Below are positions 480 to 18,841 of a stretch of 18,841 bases of DNA, in pieces (within the stretch, counting starts at the first letter, position 1; each line of letters opens with the position of its first letter). The DNA is from Candidatus Aenigmatarchaeota archaeon (lineage in GTDB: Archaea > Aenigmatarchaeota > Aenigmatarchaeia > CG10238-14 > SCSR01). The stretch spans positions 1-18,841 of the forward strand of contig JAWBTW010000013.1 in assembly GCA_039000165.1 (NCBI GenBank), given 5' to 3'. Made by a program: the position numbers and the translations under genes. Below the pieces are notes generated by a model. The model had not been told where the DNA came from. It ran no database searches and saw only the letters and a list, made by a program, of their open reading frames with translations.

Positions 480-517
480 AAAACTCTCTGGAAAAATTCT
501 CAAATTTTTAAAAAATT

Positions 518-1444: not shown

Positions 1445-1535
1445 ATAAAAGTTTTAAGGTTTTTGATATTTATCTTTATCAGGTCAACCTATTAACTACT
1501 TCTTTTCTTCCTTTAGGATTTTTTCACAAAGTAAA

Positions 1536-1620: not shown

Positions 1621-1674
1621 ATCAATTTTTATTTCCTAATTAGAAATAAATTTTTCTACCTTTAAAAGTATAAC

Positions 1675-2829: not shown

Positions 2830-2832
2830 GAT

Positions 2833-3027: not shown

Positions 3028-3130
3028 TATTCTACAAAGATGTGATATTTTTCTTCTTTTATCATCTTAAAATTAAAAATTTTTCGTTTAGAAAAAACAT
3101 TTAAATTAAGTTTTTCCCTTATTTTAACTG

Positions 3131-3538: not shown

Positions 3539-3622
3539 CGAGAGAAGAGATTTCAGTTTGTTTTAATTTTATTTGTAAGTTAGAACATCAAAAATAAATT
3601 TGTGAAGGTAGTTTATTAAACT

Positions 3623-4354
3623 ATGTCTTTTGAGTGGAAAATGCAGTATGTCGAGTGGGATTTAAATGAACATTTTAAAGATGGTATATTAGGGGCTCTT
3701 CGTAAGGCAGAAAGAAAAAAAGTACCTAAGAATTTAGAAATTTTGCCTTTGGCATTGGATAGGATGCTCCCTACTGAAACGTACACAATTCACCTAGGAG
3801 ATTATGTAAAATTAGTGGAAAAAATGGGTGACTTAGATAGATTTGCTTCTAACCATGATTTACCTTTAGATAAAGCTAAGAAACTTTTCATTCATATGAC
3901 TCAAAAAGGCTTTTTAAAACATGAAAGGAGAATGTTTTATGAGACTCTTATTTATGATGTTTTGATTCTATTTGCGCATGATGTATATCCATCTTCTATA
4001 TTTGGAGGAGATGATGTAGTAGGAGCTTTAGCAATAGATTCTTTTGAACCAAAAGAAATAGAAAATTATAGATTTCTCGGAAAGTTGTATGATAAATTAG
4101 AGTTAGACACAACAATTTTCTACAATTTACCCATGGACGGAAATGTTTGGAGTTTTACCTTAAGAAAGGTAAATCCATACAGAGATGTAGGATTTTGCTA
4201 TTCTTTTGAAAAATCTGGTAATCATCATTTTATTTCTCCAAATGAGCTTGAATTGGCGTTAAACAACATAGTAGAGATAAGAAACTTATGGATACAGCAC
4301 ATAAATAATTTCTATGTTAATGAAAGGGCATTTTTATCTTGGGCGAAAATTTAA
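3623..4354 (+). CDS. Hypothetical protein (243 aa, no recognised family)
   Basis: Long ATG-started ORF in AT-rich DNA; no motif recognised. Confidence 0.7.
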   Translation: MSFEWKMQYVEWDLNEHFKDGILGALRKAERKKVPKNLEILPLALDRMLPTETYTIHLGDYVKLVEKMGDLDRFASNHDLPLDKAKKLFIHMTQKGFLKHERRMFYETLIYDVLILFAHDVYPSSIFGGDDVVGALAIDSFEPKEIENYRFLGKLYDKLELDTTIFYNLPMDGNVWSFTLRKVNPYRDVGFCYSFEKSGNHHFISPNELELALNNIVEIRNLWIQHINNFYVNERAFLSWAKI

Positions 4355-4468
4355 ATAGGCATAATATGGTAGAAGAAATTTATTGTCAGGTAATTTAATT
4401 AATCCTTAAAATAAAATTATTGGAAAGAGAGACCATCTTCTTGAAATTGTTCAATATGATGAGCTATA

Positions 4469-4496
4469 GCCGATGAAGTATATCTTTACTCTTAAA
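4469..4496 (+). repeat. 28-bp direct repeat, copy 2 (attR-like; displaced gene end PMKYIFTLKST*)
   Basis: GCCGATGAAGTATATCTTTACTCTTAAA followed by TCT ACT TAG (stop 4503..4505). Confidence 0.9.
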
Positions 4497-4541
4497 TCTA
4501 CTTAGAAAATTCAAAGTTAGAAACCCAATTTTTTAATTTAT

Positions 4542-5834
4542 TCAAAGTAAATCATACAGCCTACAAATAGCAAAAGGTATTAACATTTCATCTTTACTTA
4601 ATCCTCCATGATGACCTAAAAGGTCCATTTTCCATCCTTTGAAGTATTCATACCAAAATGTGTTATTCTTGTAAGGAAGAATCAACAAATTTCCTACCCG
4701 TTCATAAAATTCTTTCTTAGGTTTGCCGATACCCAACAAACCTTCTCTTATAGCTTCCTCTGTCTTAACCACTTTTGCCTTTTCTTTTAACTTTTCTGAA
4801 AGAAAGTTGTAAGTTTCTTCTAGCTTACTTTCTTCAATATGTAAAAAAACATCGCGTGGACTGCCTGTTGGTAGTATAGGCTTGCCATTTTTACATCTTT
4901 GAAAGGAATTTACTAGTTTAGAGTATTTGTTTAAATAAACTGTATCTTTTGGTGAAACGTTCAATTGGCCATGATCAGAAGTTATTAAAATCAATGTTTC
5001 TTTTGCAGTTTTTCTATCTATTTTTTCAAGCAATTCTTTTTTAAGTAAAAATGAAAGCATCGAAAGTTCTGCATGATACTCTTCTGTACGAGGGCCATAC
5101 CTATGTTCTAACGCATCTATATCTCCAATATAAGCATAAAAATATGCAGGACCACTTTCTGCTTCCAACTGTTTTCTTAACCTAACCACAAGGTCTGAAC
5201 AATTGATAAAAGGTATCCTCACGCTTCCTTTGTGAACTACTTGAGAGTATGCACTCCAAGCATATTGTTCATTAATAAAAGTAAACGATTTAATGCCAGC
5301 TTTTTTGAGAGTTTGATGAATGGTCTTTCCTCTGAATAAAATTCTTGGATCTATTCCAAATTCTAAAAGCCTGTCTTGACCTTTAATACCTAAAGGTGTA
5401 AATTGTAGTGTACTGATTATCATATCAATTTCTTTAAAATAAAGAAACCATTCGAACAAAGCATGTTCTTGAGATGTTAAACCTGTATTTATTGTGGTAA
5501 GAGCAGCAGCAGTTGTTGAAGGAAATATGGTTGTAAGAGGAAAAACTACACCTCTTTTGGTAACTCTATCAAAAAATTTATGTTCTTTAAAGTAGTTTGT
5601 CCAATGGTGATACCCAAAACCGTCTAACAGAAAAAATACAATTTTATTTACATTTGTTTCAACTTTATCTTTATACACTTGAAGAGGAAGAGCAGGTCTT
5701 TTAGACTTAATCCCATATAACTCTAAAATCGTTGAAGGAATGTTCGAAAAACAGTATTTTTCGTAAAACGGATAAACAAATTCTCCTTTTTTCTTTTCTT
5801 TTTTGATTATATCTTCTATTTCCCTCAATATCAT
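4542..5834 (-). CDS. Alkaline phosphatase superfamily, type I phosphodiesterase/nucleotide pyrophosphatase
   Basis: Metal-binding motifs LLDGFG, FPSTTAAA (Thr nucleophile), IDALEH, TSDHGQ, GHHGG; no signal peptide. Confidence 0.9.
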   Translation of the reverse strand: MILREIEDIIKKEKKKGEFVYPFYEKYCFSNIPSTILELYGIKSKRPALPLQVYKDKVETNVNKIVFFLLDGFGYHHWTNYFKEHKFFDRVTKRGVVFPLTTIFPSTTAAALTTINTGLTSQEHALFEWFLYFKEIDMIISTLQFTPLGIKGQDRLLEFGIDPRILFRGKTIHQTLKKAGIKSFTFINEQYAWSAYSQVVHKGSVRIPFINCSDLVVRLRKQLEAESGPAYFYAYIGDIDALEHRYGPRTEEYHAELSMLSFLLKKELLEKIDRKTAKETLILITSDHGQLNVSPKDTVYLNKYSKLVNSFQRCKNGKPILPTGSPRDVFLHIEESKLEETYNFLSEKLKEKAKVVKTEEAIREGLLGIGKPKKEFYERVGNLLILPYKNNTFWYEYFKGWKMDLLGHHGGLSKDEMLIPFAICRLYDLL

Positions 5835-5968
5835 GGTTTAAATTAAGAAAAGTAAAAAATAAAAGATTATTTATTGTCAAAAATATGGATAAAACATTTT
5901 CTTGTTAAGAAAAGTTTAAGTAATTTCCCACAATTCTTCTTAAATTTTAAACTCCATATTATAGTAAA

Positions 5969-7207
5969 ATGGTCAACAATTACGTTACATTTCCAGACAG
6001 AAGGCCGCAAGCTTTTAAGGATAAAGGAGAAATAGATGAAATTCTCAGGAAATATGGCAAAAACCTGCCTTTTTCCCACACAGCAAACATATGCGGTGCA
6101 AAAATAAAGTTAATCACCAATTCAAAACATGTTTTTGATTTTTGGCAGTTAAACTGGTATGCCTCAAACTCTAATCATGCTGACGGTTTTGTCTATATTA
6201 TAACAGGAGTTGAAGGTTTTGAACCATGCTTATTCTACAACCTTGACAAAAAAATTGCCCTAGGAGTTAACACAGAATACTACGGGCTTGCAAAATCAAA
6301 AAGTGCTTTAGGTCTAGCAACAGAAATTCTGAAAGAAAAAGAAAAATATCCTATGCATGCTGCTTCTGTTTCAATCAAAAGAAATAACGAAGAGTTTGGA
6401 GTAGCAATTATCGCTCCTACAGGCACAGGGAAAACTACTCAATTTCACGAGCTTCTTTATAATGTTAGAAACAGCAAAGTTGTCGGTGACGATTATCTAT
6501 TCGTTTCTTTCGACGAAAAAGATAGAGTTAAAGCTGAGCAACCAGAAAATTGGCTTTACATGAGAACAGAGATAGCAGAAAATCATCCTACTTTTATCAA
6601 ATCTTTTGAAGGTTTACCGTTAGAAAATGTTGTAACAAAAAAGGAAAATTGCAGGCAAAAAAGCGATGACATAAACAAGATGGGTTCTTGTTACAGAAGT
6701 GTTTTGGAAGGAAGGAAGAAATGCGTCTTTGATGAAGGTTTTGATTGTTGCTATTGGTCTTACGCAAACTCGCGAGTAATGTTTCCAAGAGAAAGGTTTA
6801 CTATGCTAATAGCTGATGAGGAAGGAAATGTAAAAGAGGTTTTTAAAGGAAAAGAAAATGTAGCTAATGAAATGAACCTTAAGTATGTTTTACTTCTCAC
6901 AAGAGACGAGAGTAGCCCGATAATAAGAAAGATAGAGTGCGAGGAAGCGATTAAGATTTTGAAAGAAGGAAAGTTCAAAATTATGCCTGGTGGCGGCCCT
7001 CCAGAAAAATGGGGTCAATACGGAAACGAACCTTTTTACGATCCTTATCAATTAGAAATGGATTTGGAAAGACAGGAAAAATTTTTCAGAAAACTTTTTG
7101 ATTACGGTGTAACATTTTACCTTTTGAACACAGGTTCCTATAAAAATAGAAAAATAGAGATTCATCAAACTCATGCCTACATAAGGGCTGCATTGAGACT
7201 TAACTAA
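5969..7207 (+). CDS. PEP carboxykinase (ATP)-like / HPr-kinase-fold P-loop protein
   Basis: NTEYYGLAK, MHAAS, APTGTGKTT, VVGDD, LYMRTE, LENV, NSRVMFP and YLLNTG occur in the same order as PckA motifs (YxGEMKK, MHCSA, SGTGKTT, IGDD, YAKT, LENV, NTRxxYP, YLVNTG). Confidence 0.7.
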   Translation: MVNNYVTFPDRRPQAFKDKGEIDEILRKYGKNLPFSHTANICGAKIKLITNSKHVFDFWQLNWYASNSNHADGFVYIITGVEGFEPCLFYNLDKKIALGVNTEYYGLAKSKSALGLATEILKEKEKYPMHAASVSIKRNNEEFGVAIIAPTGTGKTTQFHELLYNVRNSKVVGDDYLFVSFDEKDRVKAEQPENWLYMRTEIAENHPTFIKSFEGLPLENVVTKKENCRQKSDDINKMGSCYRSVLEGRKKCVFDEGFDCCYWSYANSRVMFPRERFTMLIADEEGNVKEVFKGKENVANEMNLKYVLLLTRDESSPIIRKIECEEAIKILKEGKFKIMPGGGPPEKWGQYGNEPFYDPYQLEMDLERQEKFFRKLFDYGVTFYLLNTGSYKNRKIEIHQTHAYIRAALRLN

Positions 7208-7226
7208 AATTTTAATCTGCTTGATT

Positions 7227-8885
7227 TTATCCGAATTCTTCTGGTTTATTCCTTTTTCTCATCGTTCTTTTCATCAAAACCCAAGCTAATAAGCCAATCA
7301 AGACTAGCAAAATTAAAACCAGCAAAATTAAAAGATTTTGATCGGCTAGAAAAGCTAAACCAGTAAAAGAAACCTTTTCTTCACCTAAGCTTTCTTTCGG
7401 CTCAGGTAAGCATTCCCCATTTTTACACCCATAAGAACAATAATTAACATATCCCCAGCCTACTGAGCAGTCAGAATATTGATAAAGTTGCATTCTCCAA
7501 TTTCCATCGCACTTGAATTCTTCCAAAAATCTAGCAGTACATTTTGGTTCATCCCTTTTCTTGACTAAAAATGTCTCGGAATAAACAGTTTGAGTTTGGT
7601 TTAGCCAAGCATAAGAAACCTTAACCTTGTAACTTCCTTCTTCTCTTATGTTTGCATTACAGTTTAAAACATAAACACCCTTTCCCTGAACATAAACCCT
7701 AGGGTCAGTTGAATAATCGTTACAATTCATCAAATAACAATAATCTATATTGCAAACATAAGCGTCTAAATTAACATAGCATCCTTCATCCCCAGAATTT
7801 GTTAACCTGATTGTAGTTCTTACGGTTTCGTCAACAAAAACATTTTCAGGCTTGCTAACACTTACACTTATCTTACAAGGTTCTTTAGTTAAGCATCTTC
7901 CTTGCGAACAACCATAGCTACAATATTTCCAATTAATCCAATTGCTTGAACAATCAGAAAAAACATACTTTCTTTGAACCCAATTTCCATAGCATCTGTA
8001 TTCGTTTGTATAACCTTCTTCACAAGTTTTGACACAATAACCTTCTTCACAAGTATATCCAGAAGCACAATTCTCTATAACTGTTTCAAATCCACTTCCA
8101 TCGTTTTTACATCTTTCATAAGCAACTTGAGTTGGACATGCACAGTATCTATTTCTTATTTCTCCCGGAACACAAACTTGAGTTGGAGCTAACAAAATCT
8201 CTACTTTCTTTGTTTCATTACAAGAACAACTTACAATTTTGGCATCAGAATTATAACCAGACTTTTTTGCTAAAATCTTATGGGCTCCTACCGAAACTTC
8301 CTTTAAAAAATGAGAACCGTAACCTAAGTAATTTCCATCAACATAAACGTAAGCGTTAATAGGATTTCTTTTTAAATCTTTAACAGAAATATCAAGGTAG
8401 CAAGTTTGTGGTTGATAATACTCTATAACCTCAACTTCAGCTTCCCAACAAAAACAGGGGTCCTCCCTTTCAATTTCATAGCAATAGCTACTAACCCTTA
8501 CCTCAACCTCGCCTGTATATCCATAAGGAGCATACTTCTCTAAATCATACTCAACATAGCCTGAATAACCTGAAACAATTCTGTAGCCGCAATCATAACA
8601 ACTGGGAGCAGTTGATTTCCAAGCCTCTTGCCAATTCTCAGGCGAGTAAGGTAAACCATCTAAATTTATGTATTTCCCATCAGTTTTTATCCAGGCAGTG
8701 AAGCATCTAGCGTACAAATCGTTCATAGAATTGTAAACCGTTACCCTTATTTTCTTTGCATTCCTTACGTAGAAATAAGCCGATTTATACGTGTATGTTT
8801 GATAACTTAAATCACAAATTGCTAGAGTAATTTCTGGCAAAAATAGCAAAGGTACAAAAGCTATAATCAAAGCTTTAATTTTCAT
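7227..8885 (-). CDS. Secreted, C-terminally membrane-anchored Cys-rich surface protein (PEGA-like and Ig-like domains, 6-Cys repeats)
   Basis: Signal peptide MKIKALIIAFVPLLFLPEITLA; PEGA-like AYVYVDGNYLG...GAHKILAKKSGY; beta-rich Ig-like segment (IRLTNSG...GSYKVKV); TM LLILLVLILLVLIGLLAWVLM with a basic tail. Confidence 0.85.
   Translation of the reverse strand: MKIKALIIAFVPLLFLPEITLAICDLSYQTYTYKSAYFYVRNAKKIRVTVYNSMNDLYARCFTAWIKTDGKYINLDGLPYSPENWQEAWKSTAPSCYDCGYRIVSGYSGYVEYDLEKYAPYGYTGEVEVRVSSYCYEIEREDPCFCWEAEVEVIEYYQPQTCYLDISVKDLKRNPINAYVYVDGNYLGYGSHFLKEVSVGAHKILAKKSGYNSDAKIVSCSCNETKKVEILLAPTQVCVPGEIRNRYCACPTQVAYERCKNDGSGFETVIENCASGYTCEEGYCVKTCEEGYTNEYRCYGNWVQRKYVFSDCSSNWINWKYCSYGCSQGRCLTKEPCKISVSVSKPENVFVDETVRTTIRLTNSGDEGCYVNLDAYVCNIDYCYLMNCNDYSTDPRVYVQGKGVYVLNCNANIREEGSYKVKVSYAWLNQTQTVYSETFLVKKRDEPKCTARFLEEFKCDGNWRMQLYQYSDCSVGWGYVNYCSYGCKNGECLPEPKESLGEEKVSFTGLAFLADQNLLILLVLILLVLIGLLAWVLMKRTMRKRNKPEEFG
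8010..8054. repeat. 18-bp perfect direct repeat inside the CDS (TCEEGY x2, 27-bp period)
   Basis: ATAACCTTCTTCACAAGT at 8010..8027 and 8037..8054. Confidence 0.85.
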
Positions 8886-8977
8886 GATTAACCTAATAGA
8901 AAGAAAACTTTAAATCCTTAATTTCTTAAAGACAAAGATTTTTATTTAAAAATTGAAAATTAATATAAAGTGAGAAA

Positions 8978-9754
8978 TTGGTAAGAACCATAGCTATTGC
9001 TTCAGGGAAAGGTGGAGTTGGAAAAACAACCTTTGCTACAAACCTTGCTATAGCTTTAAATCAAATAGGCTATAGAGTTATAGTTGTTGATGCAAACCTA
9101 ACTACTCCTCATCTTTCCTATTACTTAGGTTTGCCAGAGTACTCTGTAACTATTAACGACATTCTAAGAGGAAGGGAAGATATAAGGTATGCAGTTGCAA
9201 GCTACAATGGAGTTATGTTTGTTCCAGCTTCGCTTAACCCTTCTGATATTATTGGAGTTGACATGAAAGATTTAAAATATTCTTTAAAAAGGCTTGATTT
9301 GCCCATGATAGATTTTATTTTTGTTGATTGTGCCCCAGGTTTAGGAAGAGAGGCAATTTGTGGAATGGAAGCTTGCGATGAAATAATTTTTGTTACTACC
9401 CCTACAATTCCGACCATGATGGATGTGAAAAGAACCATTGACATGATAGATTTAAGAGGAAAAAAACTTTGGCTCGTCTTAAACATGGTTGGTTTAGGAA
9501 AGTATGAGTTTAAAAGAGAGCAAGTTGAGGAACTCTTAGGCTTACCAATTTTAGGAGAAATTCCTTTTGATAAAAATGTTATCGATAGTGTGTCTTTTGG
9601 TGTTCCATTGATGAAATTCAACGCAAAATCTCCTGCAGCCCTGAGATTTTTACAAATTGCTCATCATCTTGTGGGTAAAGAATTTGAAATATATCCTTCT
9701 CTTTTTCATAAGATTGTTGCTAGTTTGAAGGAAAAAATTTTGAGGAGAAGTTAG
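8978..9754 (+). CDS. minD: MinD/ParA-family ATPase (archaeal MinD type)
   Basis: Deviant Walker A ASGKGGVGKTT, VVDANL, VDCAPG, VLNMV, GEIPFD; C-terminal amphipathic helix SLFHKIVASLKEKIL; TTG start. Confidence 0.85.
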   Translation: MVRTIAIASGKGGVGKTTFATNLAIALNQIGYRVIVVDANLTTPHLSYYLGLPEYSVTINDILRGREDIRYAVASYNGVMFVPASLNPSDIIGVDMKDLKYSLKRLDLPMIDFIFVDCAPGLGREAICGMEACDEIIFVTTPTIPTMMDVKRTIDMIDLRGKKLWLVLNMVGLGKYEFKREQVEELLGLPILGEIPFDKNVIDSVSFGVPLMKFNAKSPAALRFLQIAHHLVGKEFEIYPSLFHKIVASLKEKILRRS

Positions 9755-9853
9755 AAGAAATTTTTATATTTAGTGGTATATAGATTTAAATACAGAAATA
9801 GATATTTTAAAGTTAGCAACATTTGATTTTTGAAAAACTTAAAGGAAGAGAAG

Positions 9854-11947
9854 ATGAGCGAAACGAGCGAAATAAAAATTTCTAAAATAAGAAAAAGGGA
9901 CGGAAGAATTGTCGATTTTGACAAGAATAAGATAACAGAAGCTATATGGAAGGCTGCAAAAAGTGTTGGTGGAAAAGATAGGGCATTATCCGAAAAACTT
10001 GCAGATCAAGTTGTTGAACTTCTACAAAAACAACTTAAGCCAGGAGAAATCCCAAGCGTGGAGCAAGTTCAAGATTTGGTTGAAAAGGTTTTGATAGAAA
10101 ACGGACATGCAAAAACAGCAAAAGCTTTCATTCTTTACAGGCAAAAAAGGGCAGAAATAAGAAGAGCAAAAGCTTTGCTAGGCGTGCAAGATGATTTAAA
10201 ACTTCCTTTAAACTCGATAATAGTCTTAGAGAAAAGATATTTGAGAAAAGATGAAAATGGAAGAGTTATAGAAACTCCAAGGCAAATGTTTCAAAGAGTA
10301 GCGCATGCTATAGCTGAAGTTGAAAAGAATTACGGAAAAAGTGAGCAAGAAATTCAAGAATTGGAAAATCAGTTTTTCGATATGATGTCAAAACTTGAAT
10401 TTTTACCTAATTCTCCAACTCTTATGAATGCAGGAACAGGAACAAAACTCAACTTAAGCGCATGCTTCGTTATTCCGATAGAGGATTCTATAGAAAGTAT
10501 TTTTGAAGCTGTAAAAATAATGGCTATAGTTCAGAAGTCAGGTGGAGGCACAGGTTTTAGTTTTTCAAAGCTTAGACCAGCAGGTGATATAGTTCAATCA
10601 ACTAGCGGGGTAGCTTCTGGTCCAATAAGTTTTATGCAAGTTTTTGACGCAGCAACTGAAGTAATAAAGCAGGGAGGGAAAAGAAGAGGAGCTAACATGG
10701 GGATTTTAAGAGTTGACCATCCTGACATTCTTGATTTCATAGTTTGTAAAGAAAGAGAAGGCATACTACGAAACTTTAACATTTCTGTTGCAATAACTGA
10801 CAAGTTTATGGAAGCGGTAGAAAAAGATAAAGATTTTGAACTAATTAATCCAAGAACAAAAAAACCTGTCAAAAGAATTAAAGCAAGAGCAATCTGGAAT
10901 TTAATAGTTACCATGGCATGGAAAAATGGCGAGCCTGGAGTAATTTTTATCGATACAATTAATAGGCATAATCCCACTCCTCACATAGGAGAAATAGAAT
11001 CAACCAATCCCTGTGGAGAGCAGCCTCTATTGCCTTTTGAGTCTTGCAATTTAGGTTCAATTAACTTATCAAAATTTGTTGAAGATGGAAAAATTGACTG
11101 GGAAAGATTAAGAAAAATTGTTAGATTAGCAGTTCGTTTTCTCGATAATGTCATAGATGCAAACTATTATCCAGTTCCTCAAATAGAACAAATGACAAAA
11201 GCGAACAGAAAAATTGGTTTGGGTGTTATGGGATTTGCAGATATGCTTATCCAACTTGGCATACCTTACAACTCTGAAGAAGCCTTAAAAGTTGCAGAAG
11301 AAGTAATGAAATTCATTTCGGAAGAGGCAAGAAAAATGTCTGTTGAGCTAGGAGAAGAAAAAGGTTCTTTCCCTAACTTTAAGGGAAGTGTCTGGGAGAA
11401 AAAAGGTTATAAAGCTATGAGAAACGCGACAGTAACAACTATTGCGCCAACAGGAACCATAGGTGTAATAGCAGGTTGTTCTTCCGGTATAGAGCCTTTG
11501 TTTGCTATAGCTTACGTAAGAGAAGTTTCAGAAAGTTTGGGAGCAAGCTTGGTTGAAATCAATCCTTTGTTTGAAACCATAGCTATAAAAGAAGGATTTT
11601 ACACAGAGGAATTGATGAAGAAAATTTCCGGAAAAACTTCAATTCAAGACATTGAAGAAATTCCAGAGCATATAAGAAGAATTTTTGTCACTGCTCATGA
11701 TATTAGTCCAGAATGGCATGTTAGAATGCAGGCAGCTTTTCAGAAATATACTGATAATGCCGTAAGCAAAACAATAAACTTTCCATATCATGCAACTCCT
11801 CATGACGTGGAAAAAGCCTATTTATTAGCTTACAAGCTTGGTTGCAAAGGGTTAACAATCTACAGGCATGGGAGTAGGGAAGTTCAAGTTTTAAAACCTT
11901 TAAGTGAAGCTTCTTCAGTTTGTCCAACTTGCACTTTATACTCTTGA
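9854..11947 (+). CDS. nrdJ: Class II (adenosylcobalamin-dependent) ribonucleotide reductase with N-terminal ATP cone
   Basis: ATP cone IRKRDGRIVDFD; FLPNSPTLMNAG, LSACFV, TNPCGEQPL, CNLGSINL, TIAPTGT, C-terminal CPTC; no class I Tyr-Tyr pair and no beta-subunit gene nearby; no intein. ATG 9854 preferred over TTG 9830. Confidence 0.92.
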   Translation: MSETSEIKISKIRKRDGRIVDFDKNKITEAIWKAAKSVGGKDRALSEKLADQVVELLQKQLKPGEIPSVEQVQDLVEKVLIENGHAKTAKAFILYRQKRAEIRRAKALLGVQDDLKLPLNSIIVLEKRYLRKDENGRVIETPRQMFQRVAHAIAEVEKNYGKSEQEIQELENQFFDMMSKLEFLPNSPTLMNAGTGTKLNLSACFVIPIEDSIESIFEAVKIMAIVQKSGGGTGFSFSKLRPAGDIVQSTSGVASGPISFMQVFDAATEVIKQGGKRRGANMGILRVDHPDILDFIVCKEREGILRNFNISVAITDKFMEAVEKDKDFELINPRTKKPVKRIKARAIWNLIVTMAWKNGEPGVIFIDTINRHNPTPHIGEIESTNPCGEQPLLPFESCNLGSINLSKFVEDGKIDWERLRKIVRLAVRFLDNVIDANYYPVPQIEQMTKANRKIGLGVMGFADMLIQLGIPYNSEEALKVAEEVMKFISEEARKMSVELGEEKGSFPNFKGSVWEKKGYKAMRNATVTTIAPTGTIGVIAGCSSGIEPLFAIAYVREVSESLGASLVEINPLFETIAIKEGFYTEELMKKISGKTSIQDIEEIPEHIRRIFVTAHDISPEWHVRMQAAFQKYTDNAVSKTINFPYHATPHDVEKAYLLAYKLGCKGLTIYRHGSREVQVLKPLSEASSVCPTCTLYS

Positions 11948-11955
11948 GGTGGTGA
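11946..11955 (+). promoter_or_regulatory. Strong Shine-Dalgarno for ferredoxin, overlapping the nrdJ stop
   Basis: GAGGTGGTGA, 4 nt before ATG 11960. Confidence 0.75.
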
Positions 11956-11959
11956 TAAA

Positions 11960-12151
11960 ATGGTAATTCCAGTAGTAGATGAAGATAAATGTTTGGGTTG
12001 TGGCCTGTGTGCAAGCATCTGCCCAACTGTTTTTAAGTTGGGAGATGATGGGAAATCTCATGTGGTTAATCCAAAAGGATGTGATGAGTGCGATTGTAAA
12101 ACAGTAGCAGATTCTTGCCCAGCAGGAGCGATAAAATTGGTTAAAAAATAA
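11960..12151 (+). CDS. Small [4Fe-4S] ferredoxin
   Basis: 63 aa; VDEDKCLGCGLCASICP...CDECDC...SCPAGAI. Confidence 0.92.
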   Translation: MVIPVVDEDKCLGCGLCASICPTVFKLGDDGKSHVVNPKGCDECDCKTVADSCPAGAIKLVKK

Positions 12152-12152
12152 A

Positions 12153-12167
12153 TTTTTTCATTTTTTA
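12153..12167 (+). terminator. Possible oligo-T archaeal terminator after nrdJ-ferredoxin
   Basis: TTTTTTCATTTTTT immediately after the stop codon. Confidence 0.35.
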
Positions 12168-12178
12168 CATCATATTTA

Positions 12179-13027
12179 ATGCCTTTGCTTGTCACACCAA
12201 GCCTAAATCCAAAAGATAAAGAAATTATAGTGAATTATTTTAAGGCAAAGCCTCTATCCGAAGCTAACTTTTGGCCATCCAACTTTAAAAGTTATGATGA
12301 TGTTCCGTTAATAGCGAACAACTCATTTAAAGCTAAAGTTAGTGGTTATGAGTTGTTTATTTTAAATGTTGGTTATGGTGAGCAAGGAATAGAGTATGCT
12401 ATAGACGAGTATGAAAGAATTTTAAGAGAGAAAGATAAGCTTGTAGAAATCTACTTTATAGGTTCTTGTTATGCAACAAAACAATCTAAGCTAAAAGTTG
12501 GAGATTTGATAGTTCCCTATAAATCAGAAGTTGGTGGCGAGCATACAAAATTCTACGCTCAAAAATTATTGGAAAGAAATGTGAAAGAACCTACGAAATT
12601 TGATGAGGGACTGATAGAGAGAGTGAAAAGAATTGCAGAAAAACTAAAGCTAGAAATTCATCTTGGTAAAATTTTTTCAGCGCCTATAGATAAAGGTTAT
12701 CCGTGGGATGAATTTCATGAGTTTGGACACGAAAAGGGTTATTTGGCGGCAGAGCTTGAATCAGCTTGCGTGGCTGTTTTGGCAAATTATTTTAAAATTC
12801 CAGCAGTTGCTATTCTCAGAGTTAAAGATACAGGAAAGCCTGACAAGAGTTGGTCAAAAGACAAAAGGTATGAAGGTTCTACTGAGTATAAAGTCCTTTC
12901 AGAAGAAGAAAAGAGAAAAGTTCTCATAAACCAGTTGAGATTGGTTGAGCTTTCAATTAAGGAAGCAAATAATCATTTTCCAATTTTTTTGCACAAAGGT
13001 CCTTCAGGAGTATCTTCGATAGAGTAA
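12179..13027 (+). CDS. Nucleoside phosphorylase family 1 (PNP/UDP) protein, divergent
   Basis: FIGSCYA...LKVGDLIVP, IHLGKIFS, AAELESAC.AVLA...IPAVAIL.V.D. Confidence 0.75.
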   Translation: MPLLVTPSLNPKDKEIIVNYFKAKPLSEANFWPSNFKSYDDVPLIANNSFKAKVSGYELFILNVGYGEQGIEYAIDEYERILREKDKLVEIYFIGSCYATKQSKLKVGDLIVPYKSEVGGEHTKFYAQKLLERNVKEPTKFDEGLIERVKRIAEKLKLEIHLGKIFSAPIDKGYPWDEFHEFGHEKGYLAAELESACVAVLANYFKIPAVAILRVKDTGKPDKSWSKDKRYEGSTEYKVLSEEEKRKVLINQLRLVELSIKEANNHFPIFLHKGPSGVSSIE

Positions 13028-14385
13028 CCTAATTCTTTTATTTTTTCTCTTAGTTCGTCAGCAAGCTTCCAATCTTTTCTTTTTCTTGCCTCTTCTCTTT
13101 CCTTTAGAAGCTTTTGAACTTCTTCTGGTAGCTTTTCTTCTTTTATCGCTTCTTCTAAGTTTAACCCAAGAACTTTGTCAAAACTTAAAATCAAATCTAT
13201 AATTTCTTCAGAGTTCTTCTTTCCGATTTTGTTTTGTGAAATTAACTTGTTAACCTGGTTTACAAACTTAAACATAACAGCCAACGCATCATTTATCCTT
13301 AAGTTGTCATCCATTGCTTCTTCAAACTTTTTTCTAGTTTCTTTTATCATTTTTTTTACTTGCTTGTTTTCTTTCTCTCCTTTTATTTCTTTTAGCTTCC
13401 AAAGAAAGTTGATGAGTTTTTCTACTGTATTTTTTGCTGCCTCTAGCCCTTCAAAAGTGAAGTTGAGTTGTTGTTTATAATGAGTTGAAAGAAGCAAATA
13501 TCTTATTGCTCTTGGGTCATAACCTTTAGCGAGCAAGTCTCGTAAAGTGTAAAAATTTCCTAGCGATTTGGACATTTTTCTTCCTTCAACTATTAAATGT
13601 TCAGCATGTAACCAATAATTCACAAATTTTTTTCCTGTGGCTGCCTCGCTTTGAGCTATTTCATTCTCATGATGTGGAAAGATTAAGTCTACGCCGCCTG
13701 TGTGAATGTCAAAAGTTTCACCCAAATATTTCATAGACATGGCTGAACATTCTATATGCCATCCTGGCCTTCCTTTACCTATTTCAGTTTCAAAGAACAC
13801 TTCTCCATCCTCAGGATCCCAGGCTTTCCATAAAGCAAAATCATAGGCTTCTTCTTTCGTATAGCTGTCTGATTTGACTCTTGCACCAGGTTTTAGCTCT
13901 TTTATTTTAAGCTTAGAAAGTTTACCATAATCCTTAAACTTAGAAATGTCATAGTAAATTGAGCCATCCTCGCCTCTATAAGCGTAGCCTTTTTCTATAA
14001 GAATTTTTATAAGTTCAACAATCTCCTTTATATGTTCAGTTGCCCTTGGATAAACATCTGCAGGTAATAAGTTCAAAGTTTTTGAATCTTCAAAAAATGC
14101 TTTTATGTATTTTTCCGTAAATTCCCTTAAAGAGATTCCCTGTTCTCTTGCTCCTTTAATCGTTTTATCATCAATATCGGTTAAGTTCATCACATGCCTT
14201 ACTTTGAAACCTTTAAAAAGAAGCCATCTTTTCAGAAGGTCTTGCCAAACATAAGTTCTAAAGTTTCCTATATGGGCAAAATCATAAACTGTTGGACCAC
14301 AAGTATACATTCTTACCTCATTCTTTCTTATAGGTTTAAAAACTTCCTTTTTTCTTGTCAAAGTGTTAAAAAGTTTGAGCACCAT
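12973..14385 (-). CDS. cysS: Cysteinyl-tRNA synthetase
   Basis: LFNTLTRKKE, YTCGPTVYD, HIGN, NLTDIDDK, DFALWK, GRPGWHIECSAM, DLIFPHHENE, KMSKSLGN. ATG 14385 preferred; alternative TTG at 14394. Confidence 0.98.
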   Translation of the reverse strand: MVLKLFNTLTRKKEVFKPIRKNEVRMYTCGPTVYDFAHIGNFRTYVWQDLLKRWLLFKGFKVRHVMNLTDIDDKTIKGAREQGISLREFTEKYIKAFFEDSKTLNLLPADVYPRATEHIKEIVELIKILIEKGYAYRGEDGSIYYDISKFKDYGKLSKLKIKELKPGARVKSDSYTKEEAYDFALWKAWDPEDGEVFFETEIGKGRPGWHIECSAMSMKYLGETFDIHTGGVDLIFPHHENEIAQSEAATGKKFVNYWLHAEHLIVEGRKMSKSLGNFYTLRDLLAKGYDPRAIRYLLLSTHYKQQLNFTFEGLEAAKNTVEKLINFLWKLKEIKGEKENKQVKKMIKETRKKFEEAMDDNLRINDALAVMFKFVNQVNKLISQNKIGKKNSEEIIDLILSFDKVLGLNLEEAIKEEKLPEEVQKLLKEREEARKRKDWKLADELREKIKELGYSIEDTPEGPLCKKIGK

Positions 14386-14390
14386 TTTCT

Positions 14391-14727
14391 TCAACTTCCA
14401 ATTTTAAAAGAGCTCGGGGCGGGATTTGAACCCGCATGCGTCGGTCTCAACTTTTCATCTTTTTTCAAAAGACCAACTGCAGCCGACTGCCTAACCGGGT
14501 TCGGCCACCCGAGCTTTTTTACTTCTTCTTTATTTAATAAAAACATTTTTCTTCTTAAATCTCTAAGCATAAACATTTCTTTAACTAGTTTTTGTTTCTT
14601 AAGTTTGGATAAATTATACCTTAAAGTTCTTTCAGGGAGTTTTGTAATTTTTAAAAGTTGCTCTATAGTTTTTGGACTATTAGAAAGAGCTTTTTTAATG
14701 AGTTGAACAGCAAAGGCTATCGCCCAT
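14391..14727 (-). CDS. Small winged-helix-turn-helix (MarR/ArsR-like) regulator; needs a +1 frameshift after codon 5 (programmed, pseudogene or assembly error)
   Basis: The track ORF 14391..14576 extends upstream without stops to TAA 14732..14730, giving FAVQLIKKALSNSPKTIEQLLKITKLPERTLRYNLSKLKKQKLVKEMFMLRDLRRKMFLL, a wHTH pattern (LPERTxRY.L..L....LV......D.R). No in-frame ATG/GTG/TTG precedes the HTH; ATG 14727 is one base out of frame. Confidence 0.7.
14411..14514 (-). tRNA. tRNA-Cys(GCA) with a 31-nt intron at canonical 37/38 (intron ~14446..14476)
   Basis: Acceptor GCTCGGG/CCCGAGC with discriminator U73 (Cys identity element); D stem GCC/GGC; anticodon stem GTCGG/CCGAC; loop CT-GCA-G^A after removing TTGGTCTTTTGAAAAAAGATGAAAAGTTGAG; T arm GCGGG-TTCAAAT-CCCGC. 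Confidence 0.93.
14695..14727 (-). other. 10-codon leader ORF MGDSLCCSTH* with tandem Cys codons
   Basis: ATG GGC GAT AGC CTT TGC TGT TCA ACT CAT TAA; GGTG (14737..14734) lies 6 nt upstream of the ATG. Confidence 0.55.
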
Positions 14728-14788
14728 TCTTAGCACCAAATTAATTTATATAATTCAACTTAAAAAAGTTTTTGATAGAGGCAAATTT
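14728..14788. promoter_or_regulatory. Divergent promoter region between the wHTH/tRNA-Cys/cysS unit and cutA-btuR
   Basis: 61-bp AT-rich gap with TATA-like TTTATATA (+, 14745..14752) and AAAAAC-TTTTTTAAG (-, ~14773..14759). Confidence 0.45.
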
Positions 14789-15097
14789 ATGAGTATCGTT
14801 TTTGTTTATATAACAAACCCGAGCAAGAAACATGCAGAAAAGTTAGCTTTACACTTACTCAAAAAGAGATTAATAGCTTGCGCAAACATTTTTCCAATTA
14901 AAAGCTTTTATTGGTGGCAAGGAAAAATAGAGAAATCGAAAGAATATGTTTTGATAGCAAAAACTATAAAAGAAAATTTTGAGAAAATTAAAGAAGAAGT
15001 TAAAAAGATTCATGAGTATAAACTACCTTTAATAGCAAAGATAGAAGTTGAATCGAACAAGGAATATGAAGATTGGCTAAGAAAAGAAGTGGTATAA
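14789..15097 (+). CDS. cutA: Divalent-cation tolerance protein CutA
   Basis: VYITNPS...LIACANIFPIKSFYWWQGKIE..KE...KT...IHEYKLPLI...Y.DWL. Confidence 0.93.
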   Translation: MSIVFVYITNPSKKHAEKLALHLLKKRLIACANIFPIKSFYWWQGKIEKSKEYVLIAKTIKENFEKIKEEVKKIHEYKLPLIAKIEVESNKEYEDWLRKEVV

Positions 15098-15657
15098 TGG
15101 GTTATATTTACCTTTATACTGGAACAGGGGCAGGAAAAACAACTAACGCTCTAGGATTAGCTTTGCGTTCTGTAGGGCACAAGCATAAAGTTGTTATAAT
15201 TCAGTTTTTGAAATGGTGGAAAAATACAGGAGAATACAAAATAAGAGATAAGCTTAAGCCTTACTATGAGATTTACCAGTTCGGAAGGCCTGGCTGGTTT
15301 AAGCTTGATGGTTCGCCAAAAGTTTACCGTTTTGGAAAGAAGAAGTTTGTTGTTAGGAATTTGACAGATGCAGACAAGCTTTTTGCGAAAAAAGGGTTAG
15401 AATTTGCCAAAAAAATTGTTAAAGAGAAAAAGCCTCACTTGCTTGTTCTAGACGAAATAAATTTAGCCTTGCACTGGAAACTTTTGGATAAAAAAGAAGT
15501 TATAAAGTTTTTAAAGTCTTTGCCGAAAAGAACTGATGTGGTTTTAACAGGAAGGTTTGCCCCAAGAGAACTTTATAAGATTGCGCATTTTGTTAATGTT
15601 ATAAAAGATGTGAAGTTTCCAAAGAAAATACCAACAACAAAAGGAATTCAATATTAA
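15097..15657 (+). CDS. btuR: ATP:cob(I)alamin adenosyltransferase, CobA/BtuR family
   Basis: YLYTGTGAGKTTNALGLALRSVGH, IIQFLK, TGE, LVLDEIN.A, VVLTGRFAP, GIQY; ATG overlaps the cutA stop (TAATG). Confidence 0.88.
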   Translation: MGYIYLYTGTGAGKTTNALGLALRSVGHKHKVVIIQFLKWWKNTGEYKIRDKLKPYYEIYQFGRPGWFKLDGSPKVYRFGKKKFVVRNLTDADKLFAKKGLEFAKKIVKEKKPHLLVLDEINLALHWKLLDKKEVIKFLKSLPKRTDVVLTGRFAPRELYKIAHFVNVIKDVKFPKKIPTTKGIQY

Positions 15658-15760
15658 CTTCTCTTATACCTTCTAAACTTTCATTAGTTTACAAACTACT
15701 CACAAAATTGATTCAATTCCTTTAAAAAGAAATACATAGACTAGAATGTCCTTAAGTTGT

Positions 15761-16483
15761 TTAAATAAAAAACTCAGAAATCTCCTTTACTTCTATACCA
15801 TTAGCAACTTTTTTCAAATGAACATAACAAAGAGGACAAGCTGTAATGAGAATTTTAGCTTTAGTTTTATTCACTTGTTTTATTCTTTCTTTTGCTATTT
15901 CTTCTGCTAACTCAGGATAATTTCCAACAACTCCTCCCCCACCTCCGCAACAAAAAGAATTTTCTCTAGAAAATTCCATTTCAACAATTTCAAAACCTAA
16001 GAATTTAAGAATTTCTCTTGGCTCTTCATAAATTTTTGAATATCTTCCTAAGTGACAAGGGTCATGATAAGTTATTGTATTGTTAAATTTTTTGTTTAAT
16101 TTAAGCTTGCCTTCTTTTATAGCCTTAGCTATCGTTTGGGTAGTATGTTCAACTTCTATATCCCATTTATCCAAAAGTTTTGGATAATCTTGAGAAAAAA
16201 CTTTAAAACAAGCAGGACAAGAAGTTATTATTTTTCTTACAGAATGCTCCTTAAAAGTTTCTAAATTTTTTTGAGCAAGATTTTTTGCATCATTTCTATA
16301 ACCTGCGTTTAGAGCAGGTGAACCACAACAGACTTCCAAATCTTTAAGCTCGATAAAATCTATTCCTATTTTTCTTAAGATTTTCCTGTAATTTTCCCCC
16401 AAATCTTTAGCAACAAATTTTGTTAAGCAGCCAGGATAGTATAAAATATTTCCTCCTTTTAACTTTTCAAAAAATTTCATCAT
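15761..16483 (-). CDS. CCG-domain (Fe-S)-binding oxidoreductase subunit (LutA/GlpC/HdrB-like)
   Basis: Two CCG domains: YYPGC...EVCCGSP...TSCPAC and YHDPCHLGR...FCCGGGGG...TACPLC; ATGA overlap with the upstream gene (alternative start 16489). Confidence 0.9.
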   Translation of the reverse strand: MMKFFEKLKGGNILYYPGCLTKFVAKDLGENYRKILRKIGIDFIELKDLEVCCGSPALNAGYRNDAKNLAQKNLETFKEHSVRKIITSCPACFKVFSQDYPKLLDKWDIEVEHTTQTIAKAIKEGKLKLNKKFNNTITYHDPCHLGRYSKIYEEPREILKFLGFEIVEMEFSRENSFCCGGGGGVVGNYPELAEEIAKERIKQVNKTKAKILITACPLCYVHLKKVANGIEVKEISEFFI

Positions 16484-17274
16484 ATCCATCCCACAAAGAA
16501 AGCAATTCCAAAAGCAATTAAAATTATACCTGCAGTTAACCTCATATATTTTCTTAATTCAATTCTTTTCTTTTCTGCCTCTTCTACTTTCAGGAAACCA
16601 AAATAGAATATCAAAGTTAAAAGCAACAAAGGAACAACGAAGAAAATGTTGTACCAGACTAAGTAAAAAATAGCTTCTGTCCAGGATAAAGTTCCAGCAA
16701 AGATAGAATTGCTAAGAAAAGAAGTATAAAACAATGGAAAAGCTCCTGCACATGGAATTTCAACTAAACTAACTAAAAAGCCTAAAAGAATCGCAGAAGG
16801 TAAAGTTGCAGATTTAATTAATTTCTCTATTTTTGGTTTTGCAAACTTTGGAATTTCTAGAGAGAAACCTTTACCAGGGAAGAAAAAGTCTTTAGCTTCT
16901 ATTACTCCAAATACGGTAATTATTCCTCCCAAAACATATCTCATTATTTGAGTGTAGCCTACGTAATAATTTGTTAGAGAAATAGCGTTAAGTAGTAAGT
17001 ACATAAATGAAAAGTAAACTAGGAAAATTACAATTGAATAGGAAATTCCTATTATGAGTAGCTTTCTTCTTGAGCCTAAGGCTAGCATATAAGCTACCAT
17101 GAAAAAAAGAACAGATAAAGCACACGGATTAAAAATTCCGTCAACTAGACCAGCAAGAACTCCTATCAAGATTACAGGAAGTTTGCTCATATCTCCCAAA
17201 ATTGGATGATAAAACTCTTGAGCATGTGCTATTGGAATTAATAGTAAAGGAAGTAACAAAAGAATTTTTTTCAT
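16480..17274 (-). CDS. CcdA/DsbD-like transmembrane electron-transfer (cytochrome c biogenesis-type) protein
   Basis: About 6 TM helices with the Pro-Cys pair DGIFNPCA and LVEIPCAG; N-terminal signal-peptide-like segment; GGTGA SD at 17283..17279. Confidence 0.8.
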   Translation of the reverse strand: MKKILLLLPLLLIPIAHAQEFYHPILGDMSKLPVILIGVLAGLVDGIFNPCALSVLFFMVAYMLALGSRRKLLIIGISYSIVIFLVYFSFMYLLLNAISLTNYYVGYTQIMRYVLGGIITVFGVIEAKDFFFPGKGFSLEIPKFAKPKIEKLIKSATLPSAILLGFLVSLVEIPCAGAFPLFYTSFLSNSIFAGTLSWTEAIFYLVWYNIFFVVPLLLLTLIFYFGFLKVEEAEKKRIELRKYMRLTAGIILIAFGIAFFVGWI

Positions 17275-17846
17275 AACTTCACCTTTATTTTACACTTTTT
17301 CATAAATATGAGAATTATGGCTAAACCAAAGACACCGGCAAAAGTTAAAACTAAAATTGGAGTGGAAGGAAGAACAGAGTAAGATGTTGGTAATGACGAA
17401 GAATTGTAAAAGCCTCTGTTCATAAACCCTATGAAAACTTTTTCTCCTATAAAAGTCATTGGTACGCCAGAAGGTTGAGTATTACATTTTTCACAAACCT
17501 CCTTCCAAAATTTTGCATTTTCGGGATGGTAATAAACTTCAAAATCGTATACTTCTAAGTTAGGATACTTTTTCTTCAACTCATCAAGAAAAGGTTTTTC
17601 CTCAGCACAATGCGGGCAGCCTTGACCCCAAAAGAAGTATACACATATTTTTCCTGGAGATATAACTTTTCCGTCAGGACAAACATTACAAATAGTACAA
17701 TTTATTATTGCTTCTTCTATCTTGTCACTATAACCGATTTCTTGAGTATAATTCCTTTGAATTAAAGGTTTACTTACGGTAATTAAAATTCCAACGAAAG
17801 CAATTAAACCAATGATAGTCCCGACAATTATAAGGTTTTCTCTCAT
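17271..17846 (-). CDS. Membrane-anchored extracellular thioredoxin/glutaredoxin-like protein
   Basis: FFWGQGCPHC active site, GVP cis-Pro loop, N- and C-terminal TM helices; ATG 17846 preceded by GGTGA (17855..17851). Confidence 0.85.
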   Translation of the reverse strand: MRENLIIVGTIIGLIAFVGILITVSKPLIQRNYTQEIGYSDKIEEAIINCTICNVCPDGKVISPGKICVYFFWGQGCPHCAEEKPFLDELKKKYPNLEVYDFEVYYHPENAKFWKEVCEKCNTQPSGVPMTFIGEKVFIGFMNRGFYNSSSLPTSYSVLPSTPILVLTFAGVFGLAIILIFMKKCKIKVKL

Positions 17847-17854
17847 TTTTTCAC

Positions 17855-18841
17855 CTAACAGCAATACAATTCTTTTGGAATTTTTCCTTCCTCTATTTTT
17901 CCGAAAGGGTTACCATACTTTCTTATATTTTCAACCATCTTTTTATTTCCTTCTGTTTCAATTTTTTCACTTACTGAAATTTCTCTTAATTTTCTAATGA
18001 TTTCTGCGACATCAATTTCTAAAGGACAATTGACCTTGCAAGATTCGCAAGTAGTGCAATAATAGAGCCCTTTATCAAAAGCTTTCTTTAAATCATTAAT
18101 AAAAGCTGTTTTTGCTACCCCTATACCACCAAAATAATTATACCCGTAACTATCAAAAATTTGCTTGTAAACTGGGCAGAAATAAAGACAAGAGCCGCAA
18201 TTTATGCAGTAAAGAATTTCGGCTAAACCATTTTTTATCATCTTACTCCTACCGTTATCGATTAAAACCAAAAAAACTTCTTTTGGGCCATGCGCACCAT
18301 AAACAATTTCTTCCTTAATATCAGCAGTCTTGCTAGGCGAGCTAATAACATTTATGTAAGAAGGTAAAGAAGTTCCGGTTCCCCAAATAGCTAAAGCTTG
18401 GCAAATTGTTATAGCATCTTGAATAGAAGGTACTATTTTATCAATTCCAGCAACTATTATATGCTTTTCAACAAGTTTTGAAACTAATGAAATGTTACCT
18501 TCATTTTCTAGAATAAAAATTCCTCCGTCCGAGGAAATGGTATTTGCTCCTGTTAAACCGATTTTTGAACTTAAAATTTCTTTTCTCAGATATTCTCTTA
18601 TCCAGGCTACTATTTTTTCAGGAGATTTTTCAAGGTTTACCTTAAACTTTTCCTCTATTTTCTTCACTATTTTTTCTATTGGAATGTGTAAAGCAGGGGT
18701 TACAGGATGTATAGAACTTTCTTCACAAATTTCAATTAAAAAATCACCACAATCAGTTTCTATTACTTCATTTCTTTTTTCCAAGTATTTTTTTAATTCT
18801 ATTTCGCTGATTACATTCGATTTTGACTTAACCACTTTCCC
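17855..18841 (-). CDS. LUD-domain / LutB-like 2x[4Fe-4S] protein (5'-truncated by window edge)
   Basis: VVKSKS, ETD.GD, H...PALH, GLTGAN, NEGN, GAHGPKE...LIDNGRS, CINCGSCLYFCP and CTTCESCKVNCP; frame open to the window end. Confidence 0.88.
   Translation of the reverse strand, partial: GKVVKSKSNVISEIELKKYLEKRNEVIETDCGDFLIEICEESSIHPVTPALHIPIEKIVKKIEEKFKVNLEKSPEKIVAWIREYLRKEILSSKIGLTGANTISSDGGIFILENEGNISLVSKLVEKHIIVAGIDKIVPSIQDAITICQALAIWGTGTSLPSYINVISSPSKTADIKEEIVYGAHGPKEVFLVLIDNGRSKMIKNGLAEILYCINCGSCLYFCPVYKQIFDSYGYNYFGGIGVAKTAFINDLKKAFDKGLYYCTTCESCKVNCPLEIDVAEIIRKLREISVSEKIETEGNKKMVENIRKYGNPFGKIEEGKIPKELYCC

Follow-up and report, generated by a model that had tools for sequence, protein, structure and literature searches.

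A putative programmed +1 frameshift with an operon-matched sensor codon ahead of small winged-helix regulators of Aenigmatarchaeota

The stretch of DNA analysed here, called the window throughout, covers 18,841 nucleotides (positions 1 to 18,841) of contig JAWBTW010000013.1 from the Candidatus Aenigmatarchaeota assembly GCA_039000165.1, which comprises 783 kb in 25 contigs with a GC content of 33%. On its minus strand, upstream of the genes for tRNA-Cys and cysteinyl-tRNA synthetase (CysRS), lies a gene for a small winged-helix-turn-helix (wHTH) protein whose start codon is one base out of frame with the protein. Comparison with related genomes indicates that this frame break is a conserved cassette and not an error, and that the codon at which the frame changes, referred to as the sensor codon, corresponds to the operon's amino acid, which is Cys, Trp or Lys and possibly Arg. 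We consider it likely that the cassette directs a programmed +1 frameshift resembling that of bacterial prfB, in which a "hungry" sense codon reports the level of charged tRNA.

The frame break and its conservation

The canonical cassette was found before 63 homologous wHTH genes in 57 Aenigmatarchaeota genomes. It consists, in this order, of a start codon, no or one further codon, a Shine-Dalgarno (SD)-like element of the form GGNGAN, one variable codon (NNN), a slippery codon and the sensor codon, after which the protein follows in the +1 frame. The start codon of these homologous small wHTH genes is nearly always one base out of frame with the protein; it is ATG in 59 of the 63 cassettes, GTG in 3 and TTG in 1, and an SD-like tetramer lies 4 to 14 nt 5' of it in most loci. 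The zero frame terminates within 1 to 25 codons (median, 9), stopping one or two codons past the sensor in L070 and L066, and in loci of the L052 type the open +1 frame begins with the slip codon. The survey covered 61 relatives, a species-level genome collection and 371 genomes of the window's phylum, and 4.5 kb were fetched on either side of each match; many contigs were short, and the genomes are related to one another. All cassette counts omit L111, L117, L122, L124, L146-148 and L150-152, which encode other, longer wHTH proteins without a cassette, and L078, L084 and L094, whose 5' ends are cut off. Beyond the 63 canonical cassettes there were 22 further variants, some of them in a second phylum: a second search yielded 12 more Trp-type loci, the variant CTC-TGT was seen at 4 loci, and 6 loci (L127, L128, L129, L131, L043 and L045, the last two being Micrarchaeota records) belong to the second phylum. 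The related records come from many independent assemblies.

In the window, the cassette and the genes behind it have the following layout, in which BRE stands for the transcription factor B recognition element and ORF for open reading frame.

14774..14784, minus strand: candidate operator TTGCCTCTATC, an exact motif match directly 5' of the A/T-rich box
14759..14773, minus strand: BRE/TATA-like box AAAAACTTTTTTAAG, the presumed promoter; its place and A/T-richness after the motif are conserved in the upstream-region alignment
14734..14737, minus strand: Shine-Dalgarno sequence GGTG, 6 nt 5' of the ATG
14695..14727, minus strand: zero-frame short ORF MGDSLCCSTH and stop (ATG GGC GAT AGC CTT TGC TGT TCA ACT CAT TAA)
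14719..14724, minus strand: internal SD-like element GGCGAT (family form GGNGAN), 3 nt 5' of the slippery codon
14713..14715, minus strand: putative slippery P-site codon CTT (Leu)
14710..14712, minus strand: putative sensor codon TGC (Cys) in the A site; the skipped base would be its first, 14712
14515..14711, minus strand: predicted winged-helix body in the +1 frame, AVQLIKKAL...KEEVK (Pfam HTH_5, structure model, Foldseek, substitution rates)
14391..14514, minus strand: stretch of the +1 frame that extends over the tRNA gene up to a TGA, probably outside the functional protein
14410..14514, minus strand: tRNA-Cys(GCA) with a 31-nt intron (Rfam, 45.7 bits; aragorn with introns)
12973..14394, minus strand: cysS, cysteinyl-tRNA synthetase (Pfam tRNA-synt_1e, E value of 2.5e-119)

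An earlier, sequence-only reading of this DNA had described GGTG, a 6-nt spacer and an ATG whose frame stops after 10 codons, followed by a wHTH in the +1 frame without a start of its own and, on the same strand, by tRNA-Cys(GCA) and cysS, and each of these points was borne out. The zero frame runs from ATG (14727-25) through CTT (14715-13) and TGC (14712-10) to TAA (14697-95). A TAA at 14732-30 immediately precedes the opening of the +1 frame, which reads EWAIAFAVQLIKKAL... and contains no ATG, GTG or TTG before a Met codon at 14576, deep inside the wHTH domain; this domain gives a match to Pfam HTH_5. If TGCT is read as one step, the product is MGDSLAVQLIKKAL.... The identity of the two downstream genes was confirmed by Rfam, aragorn and Pfam. 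The same reading had given a product of 111 residues, a length that proved nominal because the +1 frame has no stop ahead of tRNA-Cys: it passes through the full length of the tRNA gene, intron included, and ends at a TGA overlapping the start of cysS, so that about 45 of the residues are read-through of the tRNA gene, and the winged-helix domain ends near residue 70. In relatives, the regulator frame stops before the tRNA (L049) or within it (L056). If the tRNA were excised from a co-transcript, the regulator mRNA of the window would be left without a stop codon. The gene at 14410-14514 is the sole tRNA-Cys gene found in the window genome; default ARAGORN miscalls it as tRNA-Phe(GAA), and Rfam and intron-aware aragorn give Cys(GCA). 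Related tRNA-Cys and tRNA-Lys(UUU) genes with two introns were missed by both Rfam and aragorn at L008, L012, L015 and L044.

Although the P-site codon had been left unconstrained in the search pattern, it was NTT in all 56 cassettes of the Cys and Trp classes (CTT 39, GTT 15, ATT 1, TTT 1) and NAA in 6 of the 7 cassettes of the Lys and Arg classes, i.e., the rule is NUU before sensors starting with U and NAA before sensors starting with A. With NTT-T or NAA-A before the rest of the sensor, a peptidyl-tRNA could re-pair on UUU or AAA one base forward. Two Trp loci, L139 and L141, have CCC-T at this site. A tRNA-Leu(GAG) gene is present in the window genome. The SD-like element, which reads GGTGAA in 32 of the 63 cassettes, GGTGGA in 9, GGCGAT in 5 and otherwise in the remainder, is fixed at 3 to 4 nt from the slippery codon, and its distance to the start varies by 0 to 1 codon. 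The 16S rRNA of the window genome ends in ...GGAUCACCUCCU; GGNGAN is complementary to its anti-SD AUCACC, and the GGCGAT of the window has one mismatch to this 3' end. L128 and L129 of the second phylum read AGG GGT GGN CTT TGC (AGGGGU, 3 nt, CUU).

In a non-redundant stack of 24 sequences, the TT-TG of the slip site and the first two positions of the Gly codon were invariant, and the third-position entropies of the three codons before the slippery codon were 1.04, 1.12 and 1.73. Thus, as the sequence-only reading had anticipated for a functional site, third positions of the zero-frame codons vary while the slip site holds, and the frame break, NUU-UGY, the SD-like element at 3 to 4 nt and the linkage to tRNA-Cys, cysS and also cysteine synthase are kept across families and in the second phylum. 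The codon-phase entropy 3' of the junction was blurred by indels in the ungapped stack, and protein-level hidden Markov model (HMM) matches were used there instead. The claim of a tandem pair of Cys codons fared differently for its two members: the first (TGC or TGT) is conserved, and a second, TGT, occurs only in the window, L055 and L127. In the window genome, a six-frame HMM search for paralogues matched only the window's gene, and a scan for the cassette gave 11 matches, of which the 10 besides the window's look like chance. Some homologues are unshifted: they lack the cassette, begin with a normal in-frame ATG and occur in Cys operons (L104 and L108, PALP-CysRS) and Trp operons (L116 and L149, TrpRS, the tryptophanyl-tRNA synthetase); since these are the same operon types, the frameshift gate appears to have been gained or lost within the regulator family.

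An indel or a pseudogene was considered as a trivial source of the frame break. It lies at a TTT run, and the window frame has no stop before the tRNA, as might be expected from a homopolymer error in, or decay of, an ordinary ArsR-like regulator gene. However, positions 14588-14818 are identical in contigs (assembled sequences, not raw reads) of 4 runs from 2 studies, the same extra base recurs in 63 and more loci from many assemblies, and the ratio of nonsynonymous to synonymous substitution rates (dN/dS) is well below 1. In a comparison of ten wHTH loci, this ratio was 0.10 to 0.46 for all pairs of nine of them that could be computed; pairs with the tenth, L099, whose wHTH is truncated, gave 0.44 to 0.95 or failed. 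These values argue that the wHTH bodies of loci without an in-frame start are under purifying selection. Sequencing error and pseudogene formation were rejected on these grounds, and we regard the chance that either explains the frame break as negligible.

Sensor codon, operon amino acid and cassettes on other genes

The Cys class, which is defined by its sensor codon, comprises 44 loci (UGC in 36, UGU in 8), and CysRS is encoded downstream on the same strand within 4.5 kb in 39 of them, often after a cysteine-synthase-like PALP gene (14 loci) and tRNA-Cys. Cassettes with UGG were followed by TrpRS in 10 of 12 loci of the first set; the second search again gave 12 UGG loci (10 canonical and 2 with CCC-UGG), and TrpRS was present in 10 of these. 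That the UGG group would adjoin trpS had been written down beforehand as a prediction, and the prediction held (NCBIfam equivalog matches). Methionyl-tRNA synthetase merely trails TrpRS at some loci. The Lys class has AAG and comprises 6 loci, 3 of which are followed by class I lysyl-tRNA synthetase (LysRS): at three apparent exceptions the corresponding position was occupied by AAG, and a class I LysRS gene lies downstream of each. Directly behind the Lys-class regulator of L015 and L044 lies tRNA-Lys(UUU). Synthetases were typed by tblastn with five reference proteins and by Pfam and NCBIfam matches on ORFs of at least 170 to 290 aa, a procedure by which small or distant neighbours are possibly missed. 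None of the 63 canonical loci had a non-cognate CysRS, TrpRS or LysRS on the same strand within 4.5 kb. Two classes coexist in one genome in several cases, Cys and Lys in G133 and Cys and Trp in G180, G108, G113 and G248. Since paralogues carry AAG beside class I LysRS and tRNA-Lys and UGG beside TrpRS, the A-site codon appears to be the amino-acid-specific part of the cassette. The comparison that the sequence-only reading had proposed for its frameshift sensor thus came out in favour of it and was extended by the Lys and Trp paralogues. In L113 (4884-6062), the Trp-class regulator is separated from trpS by an inserted TnpB gene of the IS200/IS605 type.

A further codon, AGG, occupies the sensor site in two genes of one genome, beside an ArgE/DapE/LysK-type deacylase. 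Because AGG was seen in this one genome, Arg is a candidate class. The locus concerned, L072 (G126:C61), has two regulators on the same contig, whose cassettes contain CAA AGG (Arg?) and CAA AAG (Lys), respectively, and the deacylase gene lies upstream.

Class-matched cassettes also precede other genes of the same operons. Cysteine synthase has one in L097 (4682), L100 and L107 (2689), where TTT, CTT or GTT is followed by TGC. In Trp operons, a UGG cassette was found before an Asp/Glu-type racemase gene in L118 (3001), L119 and L125 (4673) and before a 291-aa ORF of no assigned function in L101 and L112 (4682). The Lys operons L073 (2672) and L079 contain ORFs of 307 and 394 aa with CAA AAG, and a 288-aa ORF in L072 has a CAA AGG cassette. 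The operons L073, L079, L083 and L086 share such an ORF of 307 to 394 aa (with a weak GCS2 match in L079); the next protein, of about 222 to 238 aa, is glutamine-amidotransferase-like in L079, L083 and L086 and M23-peptidase-like in L073. These shared ORFs may serve lysine salvage. L089 contains a second cassette, ATG AAC GGT GGA CGC CTT TAT, whose +1 ORF (L089:829-1383, minus strand) is prephenate-dehydratase-like (Pfam PDT, E value of 1.2e-5); this single case may be a Tyr-codon version beside an enzyme of the aromatic pathway.

The regulator protein and its candidate operator

The +1-frame body of the window matches Pfam HTH_5 (ArsR) with an E value of 6e-5 and 23.3 bits against a cut-off of 22, and HMM scores for the wHTH of relatives reach 107 bits. 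An AlphaFold2 model of the body (predicted local distance difference test, 88.1) has the order helix-helix-helix-strand-strand, with helices at residues 2-11, 16-23 and 27-39 and strands at 43-47 and 55-59. In Foldseek, this model superposed on MarR and ArsR/SmtB proteins (for example, 2yr2_B, 5yhx_M and 1smt_A) in their wHTH cores, over 61 to 64 residues, with template modeling scores of 0.85 to 0.89 by query and 0.38 to 0.56 by target; the matched chains are 98 to 146 aa long. From these matches, the window protein is predicted to be an ArsR/MarR-like winged-helix regulator of roughly 65 to 70 aa. It shares with the ArsR/SmtB and MarR families the above-cut-off HTH_5 match and the winged-helix fold but, at about 65 aa, has roughly half the length of the matched chains and covers only the wHTH core, without the dimerisation helices and without an evident ligand or metal site. 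Because the body superposes only on the wHTH cores of longer chains, it looks like a DNA-binding module reduced to the minimum, with no sensor domain in evidence, and the level of the regulator, not a ligand, would carry the signal. Homologues in databases are named ArsR-family regulator or hypothetical protein and are called from in-frame GTG, TTG or ATA starts.

The alignment of upstream regions revealed a motif 45 to 70 nt before the start, directly 5' of an A/T-rich BRE/TATA-like box. Conserved in position, it has the sequence TTGCC[GA]NTAT[CG] in loci of the Cys, Lys and Arg classes and TTGCACCNAT in those of the Trp class; as a candidate promoter motif for regulator binding, it is also written TTGCCNCTATC. 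Archaeal activators are known to bind just upstream of the BRE, and the wHTH would bind this motif. A regulon search with the short upstream motif gave 28 matches in the window genome, and only the window's promoter has the motif beside a TATA-like box. The candidate operator of the window sits in a very short divergent intergenic region between the regulator and a CutA1 gene (14789-15097, plus strand), whose start is 61 nt from the ATG of the regulator on the other strand. In close relatives, CutA1 and CobA/BtuR are likewise found as neighbours.

Proposed mechanism, competing explanations and known systems

Since the cassette combines an out-of-frame start, a slip site and a sense codon that matches the operon, we propose the following model. 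Ribosomes that stay in the zero frame would terminate after a few codons, and those that shift by +1 at the slippery codon would read the real protein, with CUU-U re-pairing as UUU and the sensor's first base left out. If the cognate aminoacyl-tRNA is scarce, the A site would stay empty longer and more ribosomes would slip; if supply is ample, ribosomes would read on in the zero frame and terminate early. In the window, shifting would depend in this way on the supply of Cys-tRNA. The regulator would act on its own promoter or operon via the conserved TTGCC...AT motif just 5' of the BRE/TATA box, most likely as an activator of its own operon, i.e., of tRNA, synthetase and biosynthetic or salvage enzymes, and enzymes that bear a cassette themselves would be gated directly by the frameshift. 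Some members of the family appear to have no other way to start the protein: 12 of the 63 loci have no ATG, GTG or TTG in the protein frame, and in 9 cassettes a +1-frame stop stands immediately before the TTT slip codon.

Several observations weigh against this model. In 43 of the 63 cassettes, the window not among them, an in-frame GTG lies four codons before the junction, inside GGTGAN, and GGCGAT loci such as the window have ATA, ATT or ATC in the protein frame at -3. Gene callers use such GTG and AUN starts, and a frameshift is therefore not strictly required at those loci. The P-site codons CGG (L079, L043 and L045) and CUC (4 loci) cannot re-pair in the +1 frame. In-frame CTT-TGC was observed 35 times in the long ORFs of the window genome, with 24 expected; since it is not avoided, the heptamer alone is not strongly shifty, and context must matter for shifting. 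A LysRS gene lies within 4.5 kb in only three of the six Lys loci. Moreover, the Cys, Lys and Trp classes are distinct protein subfamilies, so that the match of codon and synthetase amounts to about three independent events with long retention, not 85. Finally, the direction of regulation and the binding site are deduced, the check for error used contigs, one of the two studies may be the source of the assembly itself, and no RNA run was among the runs listed as containing this DNA.

The first of these points suggests an explanation without any frameshift, in which the zero frame is an overlapping leader ORF and the protein is made from the in-frame GTG or the near-cognate AUN. A ribosome stalled at the sensor codon, 15 nt from the starts, would then block or permit initiation at the main ORF, and sensing would be by occlusion. 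The GTG at -4 and the AUN codons at -3 would serve as the starts, the database proteins P0005, P0008, P0018 and P0015 are called from such starts, and a class-matched codon at a fixed place would be explained as well. Cys-rich leader ORFs that sense cysteine have been reported in mycobacteria (bioRxiv 10.1101/834739). However, this explanation does not provide a start for the 12 loci without a canonical start codon in the protein frame, nor for the 9 cassettes with a stop between the GTG and the body, at which purifying selection still acts, and it leaves unexplained both the NUU/NAA rule before the sensor and the opening of the +1 frame exactly at the slip codon. We therefore consider it unlikely, if worth keeping in mind. 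If, on the other hand, the +1 shift is real but constitutive, i.e., a recoding event of fixed efficiency or a tolerated "corrective" shift, the A-site codon would not sense anything. The conserved frame break and slip site would fit this case as well, and the response of shifting to amino acids is itself deduced, but there would be no reason for the A-site codon to track the downstream synthetase, with no non-cognate case among the 63 loci, or for the class-matched cassette to be reused on enzymes of the same operon. A constitutive shift is thus quite improbable.

An RNA-level sensor would be either a T-box-like specifier read by uncharged tRNA or a downstream structure that drives the shift. 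A codon matching the synthetase is indeed the hallmark of T-box leaders. However, RNAalifold predicted no conserved pairs in 21 diverse cassettes (-40 to +70), Rfam gave no match in window positions 14000-15000 at an E value of up to 1 besides the tRNA and a weak miRNA match, the codon belongs to a translated ORF, 15 nt from its start codon, and a T-box would leave the frame break unexplained. A T-box or structured leader was rejected on the basis of the absent pairs and the Rfam result, and we give an RNA-level sensor virtually no weight. The programmed +1 frameshift at a hungry sense codon is the reading that we prefer, and it can be compared with systems described before.

In bacterial prfB, the slip site is CUU UGA with an upstream SD-like element. 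The archaeal cassette resembles it in having a short zero-frame ORF before the break, CUU-U as the putative slip site in the P site, an SD-like element about 3 nt upstream and a presumed regulatory use. It differs in that a sense codon (UGC/UGU, UGG or AAG) takes the place of the stop codon UGA in the A site, in that the product is a DNA-binding regulator or an enzyme and not the factor that decodes the codon, and in that the cassette lies at codons 2 to 7, is archaeal and is used in a modular way on several genes per operon. T-boxes are cis elements on synthetase and amino-acid operons in which one codon specifies the cognate tRNA. Here, no structured leader was found, a translating ribosome would read the codon, and charged tRNA arriving in the A site would be sensed instead of uncharged tRNA binding to RNA. 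In attenuation of the trpL/hisL type, the speed of the ribosome at cognate codons of a leader peptide is the signal. The cassette shares with it the short 5' ORF containing codons for the operon's amino acid and, in the proposed model, ribosome speed as the signal, but it has a single sensor codon instead of a run and no terminator/antiterminator structure (RNAalifold, 21 sequences), and its output would be entry into the reading frame of the main protein instead of termination of transcription or coupled initiation. A 5' ORF with cognate codons is also the point of likeness to the polycysteine leaderless short ORFs of mycobacteria (bioRxiv 10.1101/834739). As in the yeast element Ty1, whose slip site is given as CUU AGG C in a 2016 review of frameshifting (PMC5009743), a P-site CUU would slip onto UUN while the A site awaits a scarce tRNA, and L072 even uses AGG as the waiting codon. 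In Ty1, scarcity is a fixed property of a rare tRNA that sets the ratio of Gag to Gag-Pol, whereas the identity of the codon here changes with the amino acid of the operon, which implies sensing.

According to a 2021 review of recoding in archaea, one -1 frameshift (fucA1) has been demonstrated and +1 cases were only suggested (PMC8211752), and the 2016 review states that of trans-frame proteins made specifically during starvation by a hungry-codon shift "no examples are known" (PMC5009743). Our literature search, the scope of which did not extend to subscription-only papers, found no description of this frameshift-sensor system. Regulation by programmed +1 frameshifting as such is known; the sense-codon sensor in a prfB-like geometry and its modular use in archaea would be new. 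To our knowledge, archaea are without T-boxes and classical attenuators, and little is known of how they adjust synthetase, tRNA and amino-acid supply to demand. We lean towards the view that this portable cassette of 6 to 7 codons is a general archaeal device that gates any gene by the charging of one tRNA via a hungry-codon +1 shift, i.e., a DPANN counterpart of T-boxes and attenuators for Cys, Trp, Lys, probably Arg and further amino acids. If so, frameshifting would for the first time be seen to serve amino-acid sensing in nature, and cellular archaea would have their first regulatory +1 frameshift. If the frameshift sensor is real, the annotation of dozens of genes, at present called from doubtful starts, would have to be revised, and the cassette would offer synthetic biology a compact, programmable translational switch. 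It would also establish a new regulatory principle, in which a sense codon serves as a tunable frameshift sensor.

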